Origin: Vulcanimicrobiota bacterium | GTDB lineage: Bacteria > Vulcanimicrobiota > Vulcanimicrobiia > Vulcanimicrobiales > Vulcanimicrobiaceae | Length of the DNA: 64,000 nucleotides | Assembly: GCA_963777315.1 (NCBI GenBank) | Contig: CAVZQC010000001.1 | Coordinates: 224,001 to 288,000, forward strand | Direction of reading: 5' to 3' | Shown here: in pieces, positions 1 through 11,953 of the stretch | How the letters are laid out: every line of letters starts with the position of its first letter | Numbering within the stretch: the stretch's first letter is position 1 | Notes under the pieces: generated by a model | The model's database searches: none | Told to the model about the DNA's origin: nothing | Seen by the model: the letters and a program-made list of their open reading frames with translations, nothing else | Made by a program: the position numbers and the translations under genes

Positions 1-1304
1 TCGGCGCCGAGCTCGACAACGATCCGCGAGCCAGGCCCGACGCGCAGAACATCGTGGACGCCATGCGCCCGGACGGTCTGATTCGCTCGGTGCATTTCCT
101 GACGATCGAGCACCCCGAGAAAGGCCCGGACTGGCAATGGCCGTTCGACAACCCCGAGTTCAAGGATCTTTACGACGCGATCGGCACCGAGCGCGTTTGG
201 GAACTCTACGTGGCCAAGCTGCTCGACGACGTCGAAAAGCTTCCCGGGCACATCGTGGGCCACTTCTACGTTCCTGCGACGTTCGGGCATTGGCCCGCTG
301 CCGCACGGTTGGAACAGTATGAGGACCGGCTGCTGGACGCATGCGCGGCGCGCGGAATGGCCGTCGAGATCAACACGCGGTTTCTCTACCGCGACAATCC
401 CGAAGAGCTCAAGCAGAAATATCGCGGCGCGCTTGCGCGGCTGATGCGCAAAGCCAAAGCCCGAGGCGTCGGCATCGCCATCGGCTCGGACGCTCATAGC
501 CCCAAGGATCAGGGCAACGCATTTGGTTCGGTTCTCAAAATGCTCGACGAGGCGAAGATCAACGAGATCGTGTTCCCCGTCGGCGGCCGCTTGGCGCGCG
601 TCGCGCTGCGCGCCACCAAAGAGCATTTGCAAAAGATCAAAGCGCAAGAACCGCTGCCTGCGCCGGGCAGCAGCATCAGCGGATTCGGGAGAGCCGAACT
701 GGGTTTACCCGAGCGCGAGGAAGCCCAAGAGCGTGAAAAAGCCGGCTCCCATTCCAAGTCCGGACGCGACTTAGGACCGCGCAAGCGCGCGAGCAGCCCG
801 GCGCGTTCGAGCAAGAGACCCGTCAAAGACTTGGGCGACGGCAAAGCAAAAACCCTCGAGCCCCCCAAGCCTGTGCCCAAGGGCCGGGTTCGCGCGACGG
901 CCGCCGCCAAGCCGGTAAAACCGGCCAAAACCGCGCCCAAGAGTTCAAGGCCGGCGCCGAAAGCGCCGGCTCAGGCGGCTAAGGCGGCCAAGCCTGCCAA
1001 GCCTGCCAAGCCTGCCGTGAAGTCCTCGTCAAAGCCGGCGGCAAAGAAGCCCGCCGGGAAAACGGTCAAGGCTGCGGCCAAATCCAAGGCGTCGCGCGCC
1101 GTTAAAGCAGCCAAGGCGCCCAGCCGCCGGAACGCTTCGGCCAAAAAATCCACGCCGGCCAAACGTTCGCCCGCAAAGAAAGCTTCCGGCAAGAAGGCCG
1201 CTCCCGGCAAGAAGGCCCCCGCGAAAAAGCGCGCCGGGACCACGCGCAAAGTTTCCGCGGCCAAGCGAACGGCAACAAAGAAATCACCTTCGAAACGCCG
1301 CTGA
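1..1304 (+). CDS. PHP-domain (histidinol-phosphatase-like) protein with Lys/Ala/Pro-rich histone H1-like C-terminal tail; 5' end lies outside the window
   Basis: PHP motifs IRSVH, IVGH, AVEINT and GSDAH; last ~170 aa are PAKK/AAKK low-complexity repeats. Confidence 0.75.
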   Translation, partial: GAELDNDPRARPDAQNIVDAMRPDGLIRSVHFLTIEHPEKGPDWQWPFDNPEFKDLYDAIGTERVWELYVAKLLDDVEKLPGHIVGHFYVPATFGHWPAAARLEQYEDRLLDACAARGMAVEINTRFLYRDNPEELKQKYRGALARLMRKAKARGVGIAIGSDAHSPKDQGNAFGSVLKMLDEAKINEIVFPVGGRLARVALRATKEHLQKIKAQEPLPAPGSSISGFGRAELGLPEREEAQEREKAGSHSKSGRDLGPRKRASSPARSSKRPVKDLGDGKAKTLEPPKPVPKGRVRATAAAKPVKPAKTAPKSSRPAPKAPAQAAKAAKPAKPAKPAVKSSSKPAAKKPAGKTVKAAAKSKASRAVKAAKAPSRRNASAKKSTPAKRSPAKKASGKKAAPGKKAPAKKRAGTTRKVSAAKRTATKKSPSKRR

Positions 1305-3377: not shown

Positions 3378-3414
3378 CGAACAGCGCGGTTCTTACTCAG
3401 TGGAGGATTCCTTG

Positions 3415-5043
3415 GTGAAACGTCTTCTGGCGGCCGCCGCTTTGGGCGCGCTGCTCGCGAGCTGTACCCAAAGCGGAACGTCCGGAACGTCGGGTCGAAA
3501 CGCAGGCGGTCAACCCGGTACGCTGCGCATGTCGATTCAGCAGGACGTAAAGAATCTCAATCCGCTGCTCAATTCGAACACCACCGACGGCATGATCGCG
3601 TTTCTGATGTTCGAGCCCCTGCTGCACTCGGACGTCCAGGGCAATCCGGTACCGATGCTGGCCGCACAAGTGCCTACGCTGCAGAACGGCGGAATCTCCA
3701 AGGACGGCCTGACGATCACATATCACCTGCGCAAGAACGTAAAGTGGAGCGACGGCGTCCCGGTGACGTCCAAAGACGTGAAGTGGTCCTGGCAAGCCAT
3801 CGTCGACAAGAACAACAACATCATCTCCACGCACGGCTACGATTACGTGCGCAGCGTCGGCACGCCCGACGATTACACGGTCGTCGTGCACCTCAAACAG
3901 AGATTCGCGCCGTTCATCAACACGTTTTTTGCCGACAGCGACCAGCCCTATCCCGTGGCTCCGGCGCACGTTCTATCCAAGTATCCGAACATCAATCAGA
4001 TTCCGTTCAACAACAATCCCAACGTCAGCGACGGTCCCTTTAAATTCGTGCGCTGGGTGCATGGCGATCACATGGAGTTCGCCGCGAACGACGCTTTCTT
4101 CATGGGCAAGCCGGGACTGCGCAGCATCTACATTCGCATCGTTCCGGACGAAAACACGGCGATCAATCTCTTGCGCACGCACGAGCTGGACTGGATGTAC
4201 CAGGCGTCGATCAACAATTATCCGCAAGCGCGCAATATCCCCGGGGTCCGGCTCGCCTGGGTCGACGTCAACGGCTACGAGTACAGCCAATTGAACGTCC
4301 AGCGGCCGTACTTGCAGGACGCGCGCGTGCGGCGCGCCATCGCGTACGCGATAGACAAGCGGCGCATCGTCGACACGACGACGTTCGGCCAAGAAAAAAT
4401 CGCAACCGAGGATCAGCCTCCGTTCATGTGGTCGCACGATCCCGGGATCGCAGACTATCCGTTCGATCCGGCCAAAGCGCGCCAATTGCTCGAGCAGGCG
4501 GGCTGGTCGCCCGGGCCCGGCGGCATCATGACCAAGGGCGGGCAGCCGCTCACGCTGGTCATGGTCAGCAACAACAGCAACGTGACGCGCCGCAAAAACA
4601 GCGTGCTGCTGCAAGCGATGCTGCGGCAAGCCGGCATTCAAGTGGAGGTGAAGTACTACCCGGGCGACGTGCTGTTCGCGCCGGCCGGCGAAGGCGGCAT
4701 TCTTCAGAGCGGAAAATTCGACATTTCGCTCGCGGGCTGGTACTCGGGTATCGATCCCGACGACGCTTCGCAATTGACCTGCGCGAACGTGGCGCCCAAC
4801 GGGTACAACTATTCGCGGTATTGCAATGCGGAAATGGACGCGGCGCAAAACATCGCCCTGGACAACTACGACCGGCCAACGCGCAAGAAAGCATACTTTC
4901 ACATTCAGCAGCTGCTGCATCGCGACGTGCCGATGATATACTACTGGTACACGCGTCAGATGCAACCCGTCAGCGTAAACTTCAAGGGATTCGCCCCCAA
5001 TCCGGTGACCGAATCCTGGAACGCGTGGCAATGGAGTATCTAG
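3415..5043 (+). CDS. Peptide/nickel ABC transporter substrate-binding lipoprotein (family 5, OppA/AppA-like)
   Basis: Lipobox LASC after a hydrophobic leader; LRKNVKWSDGVPVTSKDV family 5 signature; GPFKF. Confidence 0.9.
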   Translation: MKRLLAAAALGALLASCTQSGTSGTSGRNAGGQPGTLRMSIQQDVKNLNPLLNSNTTDGMIAFLMFEPLLHSDVQGNPVPMLAAQVPTLQNGGISKDGLTITYHLRKNVKWSDGVPVTSKDVKWSWQAIVDKNNNIISTHGYDYVRSVGTPDDYTVVVHLKQRFAPFINTFFADSDQPYPVAPAHVLSKYPNINQIPFNNNPNVSDGPFKFVRWVHGDHMEFAANDAFFMGKPGLRSIYIRIVPDENTAINLLRTHELDWMYQASINNYPQARNIPGVRLAWVDVNGYEYSQLNVQRPYLQDARVRRAIAYAIDKRRIVDTTTFGQEKIATEDQPPFMWSHDPGIADYPFDPAKARQLLEQAGWSPGPGGIMTKGGQPLTLVMVSNNSNVTRRKNSVLLQAMLRQAGIQVEVKYYPGDVLFAPAGEGGILQSGKFDISLAGWYSGIDPDDASQLTCANVAPNGYNYSRYCNAEMDAAQNIALDNYDRPTRKKAYFHIQQLLHRDVPMIYYWYTRQMQPVSVNFKGFAPNPVTESWNAWQWSI

Positions 5044-5712: not shown

Positions 5713-7500
5713 GTGGGGGAGTTCGCTATCTTGCACGCAAAGGACGCAAGCGCTATAAGAGCGGCACACGCGCCGGGAGAGCATCTCGCTCGCTTGCGCG
5801 CGCTGTGGGATCTTGCGTTGCGCGACGACGCGACCCAAACTCAAATCGACGGCGTGCTGCGCGAAGCGCGCACGGCTCTGCACTGCGACTACGTTGAAGT
5901 GTGGAACGACGCCGCGCGCCAGCGCATGGCTTACGCGTCCGACGAGCATCTGCCCCGGCCCATCGGTTCGAGCGCCTTGTCCCGCAATGCCGCCGACGAC
6001 AAACCGACGATGTTCTTTCGCGATCCCGGCGAACATACTGCACTGCAGGAAATTCTGCGATCGCTCGGCTGGTCGACGATCCTCGTTCGAAGTTTTCAAA
6101 CCGGCGAGCATCGTTCGACCCTGTCCTTTGCATGGAAGACAGCGCGGCAGACGTTCGTGTCGGAGGTCGAACTGCAATACGTTGATTTCTTGACGCACGT
6201 CGTTTCGCGTCTCATCGAACTTGCCGAAAAGCAGCGGCAAATCAACGATAAGATGCTCAACGACCCGCTCACGGGATTGCACAACCGCGCGGCTACGCTC
6301 GATCACGCGGCGCTCATGCTTTCTTCGGCGAACCGCACCGGCGCGCCGCTGGCATTTCTGTACGTCGATCTCGACGGGTTCAAGGCCATCAACGATTCGT
6401 ATGGCCACGCTATCGGCGATAGAGCCATTGCCGAAGCGGCCAACCGCATGCGTTCGGCGCTGCGCCGGCACGAGATTGCCGGCCGTATCGGCGGCGACGA
6501 GTTCGCGGTGCTGGTCAACTTCAACGAAGACGGCGAACTCGAAGCCATCGCCCATCGCCTGCTCGAAGCGATCGCGGCGCCCATGACGTACAACGGCGTG
6601 GAAGTGCGCTTGAGCGCGAGCGTAGGCATTGCGGTCTTCCCGCAGGACGGTACGAGCGCCGAAGAGCTGCTCGCGCACGCCGACGCGGCAATGTACATCG
6701 CCAAGCGCAGCAGCGGCGCGGGATATGCCTTCTACGAAAGCGCCAAGTACGAGCCGGTACTGCTCCAGCAAGCCGAGACCCGCGATCCCGCAGGCAATGC
6801 GGATCGCCCATTCATCCTGTGCTTTCAGCCCATCGTCGATTCGAGAACCGGCCGCATCATCGCAGCCGAAGCCCTCATTCGCTGGCTGCATCCAACGCAC
6901 GGCCTTCTGCTCCCGGACAGTTCTCCGGACGACGGCGGCCGTTCGAGCGTACCGGCTCATATCGATCGCGCGGTCATCGAAGCGGTCTTCGACAGCGAGA
7001 AATATCGCGAAACTGCGCGCTCGATTCCCGTGCACGTCAACGTGAGCGAAGCTGCGGAAAATTTGTTTTCGGCTTATTCGAGCAGCCAGGCCAACATCGC
7101 GATCGAGATTCCGGAAATGCTGGTCGCCGACGACCCCGAGCGGTACGCCGCGTTCATTGCGCACATACGGGAACGCGGCTTCAGCGTCGGTCTTTCGAGC
7201 TTCGGCAACGCTGGGCTGGCACTGCGTCTGCTAGCGGATTTGCCGCTTGATTTCGTCAAGATCGGTCCCAAGCTGATCCCGGGAAAGCGGTTCGGCGCCG
7301 GTTCTGCCGCTGCCGCGAAGGCTGCGATCAAACAAGCCCATCACTTCGGATGGTCCGTAATCGCCGAAAACGTCGAAGAAGAATCGCAGCGCGAATGGCT
7401 GATCGGCGCGGGCGTCGACGGACTTCAGGGATACTACATCTGCAGCCCGCTCACGCAGCGCGACTTTGCCAACTGGCTACGCTACCGAGCCGCGCAATGA
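5713..7500 (+). CDS. GAF-like sensor + GGDEF diguanylate cyclase + degenerate EAL domain
   Basis: DPLTGLHNR, DLDGFKAINDSYGH and intact GGDEF; FQPIVD...EALIRW present, but DDFGTG replaced by SSFGNAG. Confidence 0.9.
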   Translation: MGEFAILHAKDASAIRAAHAPGEHLARLRALWDLALRDDATQTQIDGVLREARTALHCDYVEVWNDAARQRMAYASDEHLPRPIGSSALSRNAADDKPTMFFRDPGEHTALQEILRSLGWSTILVRSFQTGEHRSTLSFAWKTARQTFVSEVELQYVDFLTHVVSRLIELAEKQRQINDKMLNDPLTGLHNRAATLDHAALMLSSANRTGAPLAFLYVDLDGFKAINDSYGHAIGDRAIAEAANRMRSALRRHEIAGRIGGDEFAVLVNFNEDGELEAIAHRLLEAIAAPMTYNGVEVRLSASVGIAVFPQDGTSAEELLAHADAAMYIAKRSSGAGYAFYESAKYEPVLLQQAETRDPAGNADRPFILCFQPIVDSRTGRIIAAEALIRWLHPTHGLLLPDSSPDDGGRSSVPAHIDRAVIEAVFDSEKYRETARSIPVHVNVSEAAENLFSAYSSSQANIAIEIPEMLVADDPERYAAFIAHIRERGFSVGLSSFGNAGLALRLLADLPLDFVKIGPKLIPGKRFGAGSAAAAKAAIKQAHHFGWSVIAENVEEESQREWLIGAGVDGLQGYYICSPLTQRDFANWLRYRAAQ

Positions 7501-9881
7501 CGATGAAGCCACTAACCCGCACGCGGCTCACCGCGCGTCTGCACGCGGCCTCAAAACGCCCCGCGACGGTCATTTGCGCTCCGGAAGGCTTCGGGAAGAC
7601 CACCGCGGTTCGCAGGTTTTTGCAAGAGCATCCGGCCGCGACGCTGGAATTGGAGCTGCTGCGCGAACACGGCTCGCTCACGTCGTTTGCGCGCGGCCTG
7701 GCAGAAACGCTTGCGCCCGTCGCGCCGGGCCTACCGTCCTCGTTCGCGCGCGCCATGGAGTTCGCGTTCCAGTCGTCGCGCGTGGAAGACGAGTTGGCGA
7801 TTTGGTTTCTTGGGCACCTCGATCGCCACGCCTCCCGAACGATACTCATCGACGATCTCCACCATGCCGCGGACGAGCGGATACTGCGGCTGCTCGAGCG
7901 CTTGGTGACCGATTCGCCGCCGGGCTATCGCTGGCTCATCGCGTCGCGAGAGATGCCGGCTCCGGCGGAACGCTGGCTGGAGCGTGACCTTTGCGCCCGG
8001 CCCGTTGACGAGAATGACCTGCGGCTCACGCAAAGCGAGATGCACGAGATCGCGGCATCGATGGAACTTTCGCAGACGCAGACGGCTTCGCTCGAGGAGA
8101 TGACCCGTGGCTGGCCGCTCGCCTTCAGTTTGGGTGCGAGCCTTCCGCGCTGGATCGATCGCCTGCACCAGCTGCGTCCGGCCAGCGCCGAAGGCGTGTA
8201 CGCATTTTTTGCCGAGCAATTCTTTTTGCAGTGCGACGATCGCCTCAAAGAACTGCTGCTCGATACCTGCGTCTTCACCACGCTCGATCGCGACGTCATT
8301 GCCAAAAGCCCATGGCGCCGTTCTTGGCCTGCGCTGCGCGACCTGGCCGCGGACGGACGGCTCGTATCCCTTCGGCGCGACGGTTCGATTCAATTGCGCG
8401 ATCTCTTCCGAACGTTCTTGGAACAGCGCCTGGAGCAGGAAACCGCCACGACGGTTTCCGAGGCCTGCACGACGGCGGCGAATTTGTTGGAGAACTGCGG
8501 GCGGGTAGCCGACGCTTTGCGTTTGTATGCGCGCGCGGGCAACGATGCCGGGGTTCTGCAGCTGTGCGAACGCTACGGGTTCGCGCTCGTCGACGAGGGG
8601 CGCCTGGACGACTTGAAGAGCGCCTTGGCGACCGTCGCTGCCGACGCGGCTGACGGGAGCGCGGTAGCATTGGCGGTAAAGGGGATCGCCGAAGCCAACG
8701 CCGCTCGAAGCGACATCGCGGAATCGTGGTACTTGCACGCGATCGACAAGGCGCAAGGCACCGTCTCGCGAGCCGAGATCGCCTACCGTTACGGCCTCGA
8801 GCTCGTGCGGCAAGGCCGCTTGGACGGCATCGAACTACTCGAGCAATACGTCGGCAAAACGCTTCCGGTAGAACTGGACGCATCGCTGCGATCGACGCTC
8901 GCAACGGCGTACGTGCTGGCCGAGCGATTCGACGACGCGCGAACGATGATGGATACGGCGCTTGGGCTGGTGGACCCATCCGCGTCCAAGCCGCTGCAAG
9001 CCAAAATTCATCACCACGCCGCGTGGGTCGCGCTGTTCACCGGTCAAATCGCCACCGCGCGCAACTGCGCGACGCTGGCAGTGGAATCCGCGCTCGAATG
9101 CGCCATGTACGACGTCGCGGCTCGCGCGTATTCGGTACTGTACAACATTTCGTATGACGTCGAAGACAGCCCTATCGCAACGCTGGAAATTTTGGACCGC
9201 ATTCTGGACTGCGGGCTGAAAGCCGGCAGCGAGCAAGTCCGGCTTTTTGCGCTGCTGGGGAGCATCGATATTCGCGCCGAAATCGGTGACGCCGACGGTC
9301 TGCGTAAAATCGAAAAAATACTCGATGCGCATAGCATCGATTATGCCAGCCGAGCGACTACGGAAGCGCTGTTGCCCGCAGAAGCGCTCACCCTTGCCGG
9401 CAGCGGACGCTTCGGGGATGCGTATAATTTGATTTTCCCCACCGGCGAACGCCAAGTTACGGCCGACCGTAAAGCGCTTCGGTTTTCCGAGATTGCGTTC
9501 TACGCCTCAGCCGCCGGATTCACCGAAAAAGCGAAGCTTGCGCTCGCCGAAGTAGAAAACCATTTGCGGCAAAGCGATCCGGCTTCGCGGCGCACCATCC
9601 GCACGCAGCTCTACTATGCGCTTGCCGTTCGGCTTCTTGGCCGCATCGGCGAAGCGTACGATATGTTGCGGCTCGTATCCGAGCAACGCGATGCGATGTC
9701 TGCGCGCTTGCGCGCCCTGTACGCCTGCGTCAACGCCATTTTCGATCACTGGGAAAGCGCCGATAACTACGATGCTCTCTACGTAGCGCTGCACGAGCTG
9801 CGCGCAGAGCATTTCGGCGGAGTAGGAGCTGCGCTGGCAGCTCTCCCATGCGCACAGGAGCAGATGCAAATTGCTGGATAG
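7497..9881 (+). CDS. MalT-like STAND ATPase with TPR-like helical sensor region, no C-terminal LuxR HTH
   Basis: Walker A APEGFGKTT, Walker B ILIDDLH, ASR, DLRLT and TRGWP motifs of the MalT family; ATGA overlap with the upstream gene. Confidence 0.8.
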   Translation: MTMKPLTRTRLTARLHAASKRPATVICAPEGFGKTTAVRRFLQEHPAATLELELLREHGSLTSFARGLAETLAPVAPGLPSSFARAMEFAFQSSRVEDELAIWFLGHLDRHASRTILIDDLHHAADERILRLLERLVTDSPPGYRWLIASREMPAPAERWLERDLCARPVDENDLRLTQSEMHEIAASMELSQTQTASLEEMTRGWPLAFSLGASLPRWIDRLHQLRPASAEGVYAFFAEQFFLQCDDRLKELLLDTCVFTTLDRDVIAKSPWRRSWPALRDLAADGRLVSLRRDGSIQLRDLFRTFLEQRLEQETATTVSEACTTAANLLENCGRVADALRLYARAGNDAGVLQLCERYGFALVDEGRLDDLKSALATVAADAADGSAVALAVKGIAEANAARSDIAESWYLHAIDKAQGTVSRAEIAYRYGLELVRQGRLDGIELLEQYVGKTLPVELDASLRSTLATAYVLAERFDDARTMMDTALGLVDPSASKPLQAKIHHHAAWVALFTGQIATARNCATLAVESALECAMYDVAARAYSVLYNISYDVEDSPIATLEILDRILDCGLKAGSEQVRLFALLGSIDIRAEIGDADGLRKIEKILDAHSIDYASRATTEALLPAEALTLAGSGRFGDAYNLIFPTGERQVTADRKALRFSEIAFYASAAGFTEKAKLALAEVENHLRQSDPASRRTIRTQLYYALAVRLLGRIGEAYDMLRLVSEQRDAMSARLRALYACVNAIFDHWESADNYDALYVALHELRAEHFGGVGAALAALPCAQEQMQIAG

Positions 9882-10842
9882 GCAAGTCGCCTCGGGATCA
9901 AACGTGACGCACCGCATCGGAGCGCTGCGGCGCGAGATTTCGAATCGAACGCTCGCGAGAACGCTGCCGCCGGAACGCCAGTCGATTTTGGCGGACGTGG
10001 TGACGAAGCGAACGCTGGATCGGATCGCGGATTGGACGCTTGGCCAAGACGTATCGCCGGTTTTCGACTGGGTGGACACGGTCCTCAAGGAATATCCTCA
10101 GCAGAGCCGCTTGTACACCTTGCTGCCTTCGGCAGTCAGCGCAACGCTGGATGTCCTTTCCGAGGAGCCCGAATCCTTGGCGCCGGCGATTCGCGGCGAG
10201 CTGATGAATTTGCAGCAGCGAATCGACGTCCACATCGGCGCTTTTTGCACGAAGCGCCAAGAGAACGAACTGCGTGCCATCGATCCCGTCGATGCCAAAA
10301 TCGACGAGCTGCTGTTCAGGCTTTCTGCGCAGGATTCGCTTACGGCCGAACACTCGCGATCGGTGGGCATGTGGTGCTGGCGCATAGCCAAGCATCTTGC
10401 GTTACCGCGGGCTGAGTCGTACGTTATCATCCGCAGTGGTTTATTGCACGATGTCGGCAAGACGGCTACGCCCATAGAAATTTTGATGGCGCCGCGCAAA
10501 CTCACCGAAAAGGAATGGGAGATAATGCGCCAGCACGCCGTCCTGGGCGAGCGAATTATTCGGCGGACGTCAGAACTGCGGCAGTTCACGCCGGCGGTTC
10601 GCTCTCACCACGAACGATTCGACGGCGACGGATACCCGGACGGCTTAGAGCGCGGCTCGATTCCGTTTGCGGCGCGCATCGTCGCCGTGGCCGACGCGTT
10701 CAATGCGATGATTGCGCGGCGGCCCTACCGCAATCCCATGCCGCCGACGCACGCGATCGAGGAACTGAAACGAAACAGCGGGACCCAATTCGATCCCGCT
10801 GCCGTTGAAGCGATGATTGACGTCGTGCTTAGTGGCCGATGA
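9871..10842 (+). CDS. HD-GYP phosphodiesterase (c-di-GMP)
   Basis: EHSRSV, LLHDVGK, HHERFDGDGYPDGL, ADAFNAM, RPYR, GTQFDP. Confidence 0.9.
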   Translation: MLDRQVASGSNVTHRIGALRREISNRTLARTLPPERQSILADVVTKRTLDRIADWTLGQDVSPVFDWVDTVLKEYPQQSRLYTLLPSAVSATLDVLSEEPESLAPAIRGELMNLQQRIDVHIGAFCTKRQENELRAIDPVDAKIDELLFRLSAQDSLTAEHSRSVGMWCWRIAKHLALPRAESYVIIRSGLLHDVGKTATPIEILMAPRKLTEKEWEIMRQHAVLGERIIRRTSELRQFTPAVRSHHERFDGDGYPDGLERGSIPFAARIVAVADAFNAMIARRPYRNPMPPTHAIEELKRNSGTQFDPAAVEAMIDVVLSGR

Positions 10843-11254
10843 TCCGCATCAACCAAGAAACGTCGATAGTAAAGGCGCCTGACCCCGGAATACCCGAAAG
10901 CACAAGAAATTTCGGGAGGGCGCTCGCGCTGTCCATGCGATTGGGTCCGGGCAGGGCGCTCGCGCTGTCCATGCGATTGGGTCCGGGCAGGGCGCTCGCG
11001 CTGTCCATGCGATTGGGTCCGGGCAGGGCACTCGCGCTGTCCATGCGATTGGGTCCGGGCAGGGCACTCGCGCTGTCCATGCGATTGGGTCCGGGCAGGG
11101 CACTCGCGCTGTCCATGCGATTGGGTCCGGGCAGGGCACTCGCGCTGTCCATGCGATGGGGTGCGGGCAGGGCGCTGGCGCTGTCTGCTAACGCGGGGGC
11201 CGTAGCGCACACCAAAGCTATAGCACCAAAAACGAGCGTCTTATATGAGGTCAT
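10829..11254 (-). CDS. Secreted multi-core repeat peptide precursor (signal peptide + 8 x DSASALP)
   Basis: AGGAG RBS just upstream of ATG 11254; leader MTSYKTLVFGAIALVCATAPALA ends in an A-x-A site directly before the first DSASALP. Confidence 0.75.
   Translation of the reverse strand: MTSYKTLVFGAIALVCATAPALADSASALPAPHRMDSASALPGPNRMDSASALPGPNRMDSASALPGPNRMDSASALPGPNRMDSASALPGPNRMDSASALPGPNRMDSASALPKFLVLSGIPGSGAFTIDVSWLMRIIGH
10915..11185. repeat. 36-bp tandem repeat, 7 full units plus 1 partial
   Basis: Unit GCAGGGC(G/A)CTCGCGCTGTCCATGCGATTGGGTCCGG starting at 10915, 10951, 10987, 11023, 11059, 11095, 11131 and 11167 (partial); no spacers. Confidence 0.98.
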
Positions 11255-11386
11255 AAGGGCTCCTATAATAGCGAGAAAACGCGCAGCGTTATACGCGCTG
11301 CTTGTCATTATGCTATCTTGCTTGGAAGCAGTTGAAAGCTCTCATCGCTATCAGCAGTTGACGGCAGTGGGAACATAGAACTACCC

Positions 11387-11953
11387 GTGATGATAGGTAC
11401 GCGCCGGGCAGTATCTACCGTAGACCAACGGGCGCCGCTCTTACCCGACCATTTCGAGGTATTGCAGCGGCGGGCCACGCCTGCGCTGTTCGTCGTGGAC
11501 AAGCGCTTGCGGGTTATCTACTATCGCGCCGATCCTGCCGAACGGCGCAAAGAATTTCATCCCGCTCATGACGGCTCGCTGCCGCAAGCGATCGAGTATA
11601 CGGTCCTCAAGCTGCTGGCGCAGGCGGAGGACAGCATCGACGGCGTTCTTCGCGGTGCGGTCAGCGCCTCGGTGGCCGTTCGCGTGATCGAGCTCCACGG
11701 AACTCCGCCCGTCTACGCTATTATGGTCGAGCGTTTCGCGCTTCGCGATCACATGGAGACGCTTGCGAACCGCTTCAGCCTCTCCCCGCGCGAACGCCAA
11801 GTGCTCGGGCTGGTCGTCAAGGGGCTGCGCAACGAAGAGATCGCCCAGCACCTGTTCATCTCCAAATCTACCGCCATCTTCCACGTCAAACAATTGCTGA
11901 CCAAAACCGGGTCGCGCAACCGCACGGAAATGGTCGCCAAGATCATCGCTTAG
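11387..11953 (+). CDS. LuxR/CsgD-family HTH transcriptional regulator
   Basis: C-terminal LSPRERQVLGLVVKGLRNEEIAQHLFISKSTAIFHVKQLLTK; no receiver domain. Confidence 0.9.
   Translation: MMIGTRRAVSTVDQRAPLLPDHFEVLQRRATPALFVVDKRLRVIYYRADPAERRKEFHPAHDGSLPQAIEYTVLKLLAQAEDSIDGVLRGAVSASVAVRVIELHGTPPVYAIMVERFALRDHMETLANRFSLSPRERQVLGLVVKGLRNEEIAQHLFISKSTAIFHVKQLLTKTGSRNRTEMVAKIIA

Follow-up and report, generated by a model that had tools for sequence, protein, structure and literature searches.

The window analysed here, a 64,000-nucleotide stretch of a Vulcanimicrobiota bacterium genome (GenBank assembly GCA_963777315.1, contig CAVZQC010000001.1, positions 224,001 to 288,000), carries a five-gene module in which a multi-core peptide precursor lies beside a MalT-type STAND NTPase and predicted enzymes of cyclic di-GMP (c-di-GMP) turnover. 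The module is real, conserved and new relative to the literature searched. We propose that a re-imported peptide binds the STAND protein, which switches the HD-GYP phosphodiesterase encoded next to it. That whole chain we hold to be slightly on the probable side; taken singly, the peptide is very probably the ligand of the STAND protein, the HD-GYP enzyme is probably the direct output, and there is a fairly good chance that the signal acts between cells. The module comprises the following features, in coordinates of the window.

5713..7500, + strand: GGDEF-EAL protein, N-terminal region without assignment (Pfam, motifs)
7497..9881, + strand: MalT-type STAND NTPase with a tetratricopeptide repeat (TPR) superhelix, lacking a helix-turn-helix (HTH) domain (domain matches, AlphaFold2 (AF2) model, covariation)
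9871..10842, + strand: predicted HD-GYP phosphodiesterase with a helical, tentatively globin-like N-terminal domain (Pfam HD_5, motifs, model, STAND fusions)
10829..11254, - strand: multi-core peptide precursor of 141 aa, with a signal peptide, 8 DSASALP cores and a hydrophobic tail (repeats, homologues)
11186..11254, - strand: predicted Sec signal peptide of 23 aa with an A-L-A end, the first core directly after it (by eye and conservation)
10913..11185, - strand: eight DSASALP cores at 12-residue spacing, with linkers APHRM (once) and GPNRM (six times) (repeat analysis)
10829..10912, - strand: precursor C-terminal tail (alike in close orthologues, missing in some)
11310..11315, - strand: conserved hexamer TAGCAT resembling a -10 element, in the promoter of the precursor gene (promoter comparison across loci)
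11333..11344, unstranded: 12-bp near-palindrome TGAGAGCTTTCA (- strand reading), its end 17 nt before the -10; candidate operator
11387..11953, + strand: solo LuxR/GerE-HTH regulator, N-terminal domain without assignment (domain matches, homologues)

The five open reading frames (ORFs) described in an earlier, sequence-only reading of this DNA were all recovered in the window, in the arrangement it gave. The three genes from the GGDEF-EAL to the HD-GYP protein overlap through their stop and start codons (ATGA at 7497-7500; 11 nt at 9871-9881) and converge on the repeat-peptide gene, which shares 14 nt with the HD-GYP gene (10829-10842). The divergent region between the precursor and LuxR genes is short and AT-rich: 132 bp, with 48% GC versus 62% in the window. 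The tandem array at 10913-11185 (period 36, 7.6 copies, 97% match) reaches a Tandem Repeats Finder (TRF) score of 490; the second-best array in the window scores 65 only. The most likely start of the precursor is 11254 (MTSYK, 141 aa, AGGAG 5 nt upstream) and not 11308, because the other 23 orthologues open with the same M-x-SY[RK]T motif. The 159-aa reading from 11308 was dropped, and a + strand ORF at 10839-11378 and the remaining frames across the repeats are taken as shadow ORFs. A promoter and terminator scan gave no signal above chance.

All precursors begin with M-x-SY[RK]T and have the signal peptide in common; by eye, a basic start, a hydrophobic stretch and an A-x-A motif are conserved across them. 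Orthologues range in size from ~40 aa to >140 aa. The cores (7-8 residues) vary by species: DSASALP, DSASAVP, DSVPAIP, DIPHAMP, DSVTAKP, GLSPMP, AGPKAQP, TSIPAQP and others, with a single or degenerate core in two precursors. A scan of the module genes found no modifying enzyme, of the kind present in multi-core clusters of ribosomally synthesized and post-translationally modified peptides, among the five window genes. Two very short precursors (L092 and L096, ~40 aa) have the Cys-containing cores DCAHALP and DCGHALP and an atypical leader whose hydrophobic stretch is not clear. Amphipathic tails follow the cores in the window (10829-10912) and at L113, L197, L199 and L206; they occur in free precursors and in some of the protease tethers described below.

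The module was counted in a draw of 301 genomes of the family. Matches to the STAND protein occur in 67/71 same-family genomes and in few genomes outside the family. In the draw of 301, each of the 21 best STAND matches (up to E 2.6e-143) belongs to a complete module, which in G271 is split across two contigs. Among the LuxR loci that were fetched and reach E 3.2e-27, 24 of 25 have the precursor and HD-GYP genes adjacent; the exception stands 164 nt from a contig end, and one more match was not fetched. At weaker LuxR matches the module is missing (5/5). From the STAND and LuxR searches we therefore place the module in 24/301 family genomes, of which G162, G166 and G218 are unpublished. The LuxR gene is present in 24/24 free-peptide loci and the GGDEF-EAL gene in all 22 informative ones, relocated in 5 of these. 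One homologous precursor and its locus are labelled Candidatus (Ca.) Baltobacteraceae, another locus Ca. Eremiobacteraeota. The labels of these relatives place the organism in Eremiobacterota, where many uncultured genomes keep the five genes together. The neighbourhood is conserved, which the sequence-only reading had proposed as a test of its idea. That reading knew of no described system with this five-gene layout, and no account of the module turned up in the literature searched, mostly open-access papers. The RRNPP_detector tables, according to the discussion section of that work, are restricted to Firmicutes genomes.

Cores of this type appear in two unrelated carriers, the free precursor and a tether within S53 lipoproteins. 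Most paralogous STANDs retain a C-terminal LuxR HTH (83/122 family loci), and these HTH-bearing paralogues adjoin a lipoprotein protease of the S53 family. Searched against the PDB, the protease alignment matches kumamolisin (E 2e-14), with E-x-x-x-D, D and S conserved; a single protease sequence as query gave no match there. The stretch from the lipobox Cys to the protease domain contains 8-mers joined head to tail, for example DNPSALPG, DSASAMPG and ESATGLPG. Of the 81 STAND-linked proteases, 62 have identical repeats and 74 have one motif or more. Thirty proteases were chosen as controls: one has repeats and was found beside a STAND and an HD-GYP gene, and the other 29 form the unlinked set, where repeats occur in 0/29. 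The best 22 S53 matches of this clade all have a STAND match adjacent. The genome of the window itself has such a locus (G000:C2:150580-154374), in which a STAND-HTH gene is followed by an S53 lipoprotein with DSPSALPG x3, one residue off the window core. A frameshift near the HTH end, possibly an assembly error, merges both genes into one ORF, and a GAF/GGDEF-like gene lies divergent upstream. A third carrier of cores is found at L296, where the neighbour of a STAND-HTH and an HD-GYP gene encodes a small lipoprotein that has SLSPIPA-type repeats but no protease domain. Genomes of genus g4 hold 5-15 S53 protease paralogues each, and the sampled ones are without core repeats.

Joint variation of cores and receptors supplies comparative evidence, strong but indirect, which suggests a family of peptide-reading STANDs. 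Across 91 receptor-core pairs, corrected mutual information links core position P1 with R698 and R662, P2-P3 with Y549, Y553 and A620, and P4 with E623. An acidic P1 goes with R662 in 66/66 training pairs; E623 accompanies S, T, N or H at P4 in 53/57 pairs, and other P4 residues in 5/34. On an unrooted FastTree tree of STAND residues 1-500 (89 rows, two fragments excluded), P4-E623 gives 13 independent pairs, of which 9 change in the same direction, 0 in the opposite one and 4 are unchanged (p 0.004, chosen post hoc). The control consists of 85 protease-linked pairs and 133 variable protease columns, which share their ancestry with the cores. TPR A-helices line the groove of the superhelix, and 12 of the top 20 partners of P1-P4 lie on them; the control mean is 1.03/5, and 0/20000 draws reached 12. 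The z of P4-E623 is 7.5, the control maximum 6.97.

By its modelled structure, the 7497-9881 product is a MalT-clade STAND, with a nucleotide-binding oligomerization domain (NOD), an arm and a TPR sensor. NCBIfam MalT covers residues 6-383 only. The protein of 794 aa consists of the NTPase (residues 1 to ~387) and the TPR superhelix (~420-772), with no C-terminal HTH, and its AF2 model has a pLDDT of 95. Residues 1-387 superpose on MalT (8bob) at Z 34, with a root-mean-square deviation of 3.0 over 378 residues (VIA-align), and on 6mfv at Z 26.7. TPR residues 420-772 match phage Rap (Z 18.5), NprR (Z 18.2) and MalT domain III (Z 15.5). Walker A, Walker B, the sensor Arg and GxP are all intact. 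The His of the winged helix, a signature of the STAND switch, is kept in most HTH-bearing paralogues. The STAND/TPR architecture and weak whole-model fold matches to Avs3 and SAMD9 could speak for an NLR-like (nucleotide-binding leucine-rich repeat) defence system that responds to a signal of phage or amyloid type. To this idea we give almost no credence: the closest NTPase is that of MalT, the outputs are LuxR HTHs and c-di-GMP enzymes, and the motif contains proline and is placed behind a signal peptide. Predicting a complex between TPR residues 365-794 and 43 residues of the repeat region gave a score of 0.01, which is no answer and evidence neither way.

Three outputs had been considered in the sequence-only reading: the cyclase, the phosphodiesterase and the LuxR protein. 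The choice narrows to the phosphodiesterase; the other two are accessories whose genes change place. We take HD-GYP as the likely output because it lies directly behind, or is fused to, the STAND in all 38 informative HTH-less loci (38/38); among HTH-bearing ones the count is 7/83. A second set of 40 loci includes 17 with an absent or decayed HTH, all followed by HD-GYP. Natural STAND-HD-GYP fusions exist (~1100 aa; P0032-34), including 4/24 module loci, and the motifs (HD, HHExxDGxGYP and flanking metal ligands) are intact in 24/24 HD-GYP orthologues. One could also imagine that the STAND, once it has bound peptide, targets the solo LuxR protein, like a MalT whose lost HTH is supplied in trans, or the GGDEF-EAL protein, with HD-GYP no more than co-regulated. 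Both partners are constant in the module (24/24 and 22/22 informative loci), and GGDEF-EAL and STAND are translationally coupled here. We find this distinctly unlikely, given 14 HTH-less STAND + HD-GYP loci without this LuxR gene, the 17 further loci of the second set with HD-GYP directly behind the STAND, the relocation of GGDEF-EAL in 5/22 loci and the fact that every fusion seen is to HD-GYP.

The N-terminal domain of the preferred output, HD-GYP (residues 1 to ~135), is modelled as a bundle of helices similar to non-heme globins; because Z 11-13 is that of a helical bundle and Foldseek gave E>0.02, the assignment is a lead only, and the atlas returned no family for this N-terminus (0.77). 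The DDFG motif of loop 6 marks active EAL phosphodiesterases: the EAL domain in the window has SSFG in its place, and the DD is missing in 20/20 orthologues. The GGDEF motif is intact in 17/18. The 5713-7500 product probably acts as a diguanylate cyclase whose EAL domain is non-catalytic; its first 182 aa have no Pfam match. For the LuxR N-terminus the atlas returned hypothetical proteins only.

A TGAGAG-like box could be placed in the precursor promoter of 19/22 loci, in some with 2 mismatches, mostly 21 nt ahead of the -10-like hexamer; in close relatives it is half of a 12-bp palindrome across the -35 position. By inference, the divergent LuxR protein may bind at this palindrome. No regulon was found: of 17 genomic near-matches, the window one alone has a -10 at the spacing. 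Elsewhere in this genome, two tandem solo LuxR genes (G000:C4:191869-193247) have the N-terminal region of 11387-11953, and their neighbours, by eye, are glycosyltransferase-like and O-antigen-ligase-like genes, possible polysaccharide targets.

The proposed mechanism would begin with Sec export of the precursor and a signal peptidase cut ahead of Asp24. An extracellular protease, probably an S53 enzyme such as G000:C2:153178, would trim the repeats in trans, and the DSASALP(G) peptide would be taken up via an Opp/Dpp-type ATP-binding cassette (ABC) system. It would then lie in the TPR groove, with its N-terminal end towards the distal TPRs, Asp1 close to R662/R698 and Ser4 close to E623. A MalT-like nucleotide switch or oligomerisation might be relayed to HD-GYP through the globin-like domain; HD-GYP would lower c-di-GMP, the sign of the effect being a guess. 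The GGDEF protein would provide local c-di-GMP, and the LuxR protein may feed back on the palindromic box of the precursor promoter. The central element, the HTH-less STAND/TPR protein as a peptide receptor, was already part of the earlier reading and gains support from the conserved neighbourhood and from core/TPR covariation.

All the covariation evidence fits equally well with a STAND that binds the same cores as a cell-autonomous monitor, reporting the state of its own cell and not population density. The precursor could then be cytoplasmic and unexported, or the peptide freed only while the acid-activated S53 protease works. The module is without an importer gene, and its paralogous counterpart, the commoner of the two, has its cores in the tether of a lipoprotein, from the lipobox Cys to the kumamolisin-like protease. 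We nonetheless consider such a monitor unlikely: the cores diversify between species along with the receptor, as expected of kin-specific signals and reported for the Rap-Phr repeats (PMC5199041), and a plain export monitor needs no code change.

Several results weigh against a re-imported peptide read by the STAND protein. Importer and protease genes are not part of the module. The winged-helix position is Arg302, not His, and about half of the orthologues lack the His. The fold match of the TPR region is not specific, extending to generic TPR peptide binders such as APPBP2 (Z 20.4) and LGN (Z 17.1). In the covariation, independent pairs for P1 are uninformative (2-3 same, 0 opposite, p 0.5), and the A-helix set was defined after the first covariation round, with helix parity taken from the Pfam TPR_12 register. 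Two rules fixed beforehand were applied to a held-out set of 91 new loci, 35 of them with a repeated core; the exclusion of 7 that were >90% identical to training rows and of 5 duplicates left 23 pairs, 17 of which are also within the 85-pair control. The P4 rule is concordant in 14/23 (Fisher p 0.40) and the P1 rule gives p 0.14, neither being significant. Orphan receptors also exist, because 9/14 HTH-less STAND + HD-GYP loci outside the module show neither an S53 gene nor a repeat ORF in the DNA fetched. A third STAND of the same genome (G000:C4:295559-299361), with its HTH kept and an HD-GYP gene behind it, has no repeat peptide nearby.

On the other side of the held-out test, three of the P4 misses have Arg at P4 with E623, chemically sensible and outside the prediction; acidic P1 goes with R662 in 14/14, and both R662 losses are paired with a non-acidic P1. 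Core and TPR sequences co-vary beyond the control columns, with a held-out test that is not significant. Those tests, the orphan STANDs and the fact that kin share both genes might suggest that the genes are neighbours only, the repeats a structural linker or unmodified secreted product, the STAND a sensor of a small metabolite like MalT, and the covariation a matter of shared ancestry. This we regard as very unlikely: the control columns come from the same linked gene with the same ancestry and show no TPR enrichment, the motif follows STAND adjacency in two different carriers, and the module in the window showed no sign of a modifying enzyme.

Some observations concern the surroundings and relatives of the module. 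The HD-GYP protein at G000:C4:295559-299361 shares the N-terminal domain of the window HD-GYP; the STANDs of such distant paralogues have other residues in the TPR pocket. At L212, L213 and L216 a STAND with an apparently decayed C-terminal HTH is followed by HD-GYP, possible intermediates of an output swap. Two genes upstream of the module, at window 3400-5043, lies an OppA/DppA-family binding protein (SBP_bac_5), a candidate importer or an insertion hotspot. We excluded it from the module because its synteny is limited to close relatives and three paralogous STAND-S53 loci (L169, L033, L038) and because the genome holds 13 such matches. At window 54-1304, a PHP-family-like protein has a long Lys/Ala-rich, histone-like tail with two short tandem repeats.

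Among known systems, the module is most readily compared with RRNPP quorum sensing (Rap-Phr, NprR-NprX, PlcR-PapR), in which, as here, the gene for a cytoplasmic TPR protein lies near one for a small precursor that carries a predicted signal peptide; the TPR domain also has the span and fold of that in Rap and NprR (Z ~18). Rap likewise lacks an HTH and acts on a protein. Multiple diverging cores per precursor are reported for Phr and NprX in PMC5199041. RRNPP systems, as set out in PMC10075063, have a propeptide of 10-100 aa, Sec secretion, a receptor of 250-500 aa, peptide-reading TPRs and direct gene neighbours. The module departs from three of these five: the precursor has 141 aa, the receptor 794 aa, and the HD-GYP gene lies between the two. 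Many orthologous precursors are within that size (from ~40 aa), and where HD-GYP is fused to the receptor (4/24 loci), receptor and precursor are direct neighbours. Unlike RRNPP receptors, the one here has an N-terminal STAND NTPase and, as its probable output, a cyclic-dinucleotide enzyme; its relatives hold cores inside an S53 protease, and the host belongs to Eremiobacterota, not Bacillota. The comparison drawn in the sequence-only reading survives as an analogy of working and fails as membership, on precursor and receptor size and on adjacency.

With MalT/LAL STANDs (E. coli MalT, P. horikoshii PH0952) the receptor shares the NOD-arm-TPR order, and its paralogues end in a LuxR HTH. It differs in the missing HTH, the Arg in place of the winged-helix His, the probable effector, which is a separate or fused HD-GYP, and the proposed inducer, a self-encoded peptide instead of maltotriose. 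The STAND switch is described in PMC6468293, in whose main text the word 'peptide' never stands alone. In RcbAB of Vibrio vulnificus (PMC12282931), co-encoded TPR proteins govern c-di-GMP turnover by protein contact; the controlled domain there is GGDEF, and neither a peptide nor a STAND ATPase or HD-GYP is named in the abstract. The HD-GYP protein here carries a tentatively globin-like domain and no receiver domain, which sets it apart from RpfG. RpfG-type HD-GYP proteins of diffusible signal factor (DSF) quorum sensing do link a cell-cell signal to an HD-GYP phosphodiesterase, through a fatty-acid signal and a histidine-kinase phosphorelay.

Peptide quorum sensing is placed in Bacillota and split into two-component and RRNPP systems in PMC10075063. 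Whether the family described here amounts to a third architecture of bacterial peptide communication seems to us evenly balanced: it would consist of a large set of co-evolving NLR-like STANDs, each with its own self-peptide of 7-8 residues, carried free or in the tether of the protease that processes it, with receptors rewired between DNA-binding and c-di-GMP output, in an abundant soil phylum.

To our knowledge, few inducers are known for the MalT/LAL clade. If our reading is true, that clade would gain ~100 predicted pairs of receptor and ligand, together with a residue code open to testing (P4-623, P1-662/698), and orthogonal peptide-receptor pairs might find use in synthetic circuits. The STAND family shows swapping both of outputs (HTH or HD-GYP) and of carriers (free precursor or protease tether). 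If a STAND ATPase does bind a self-encoded peptide, it would be a new class of receptor, and peptide communication would reach Eremiobacterota.

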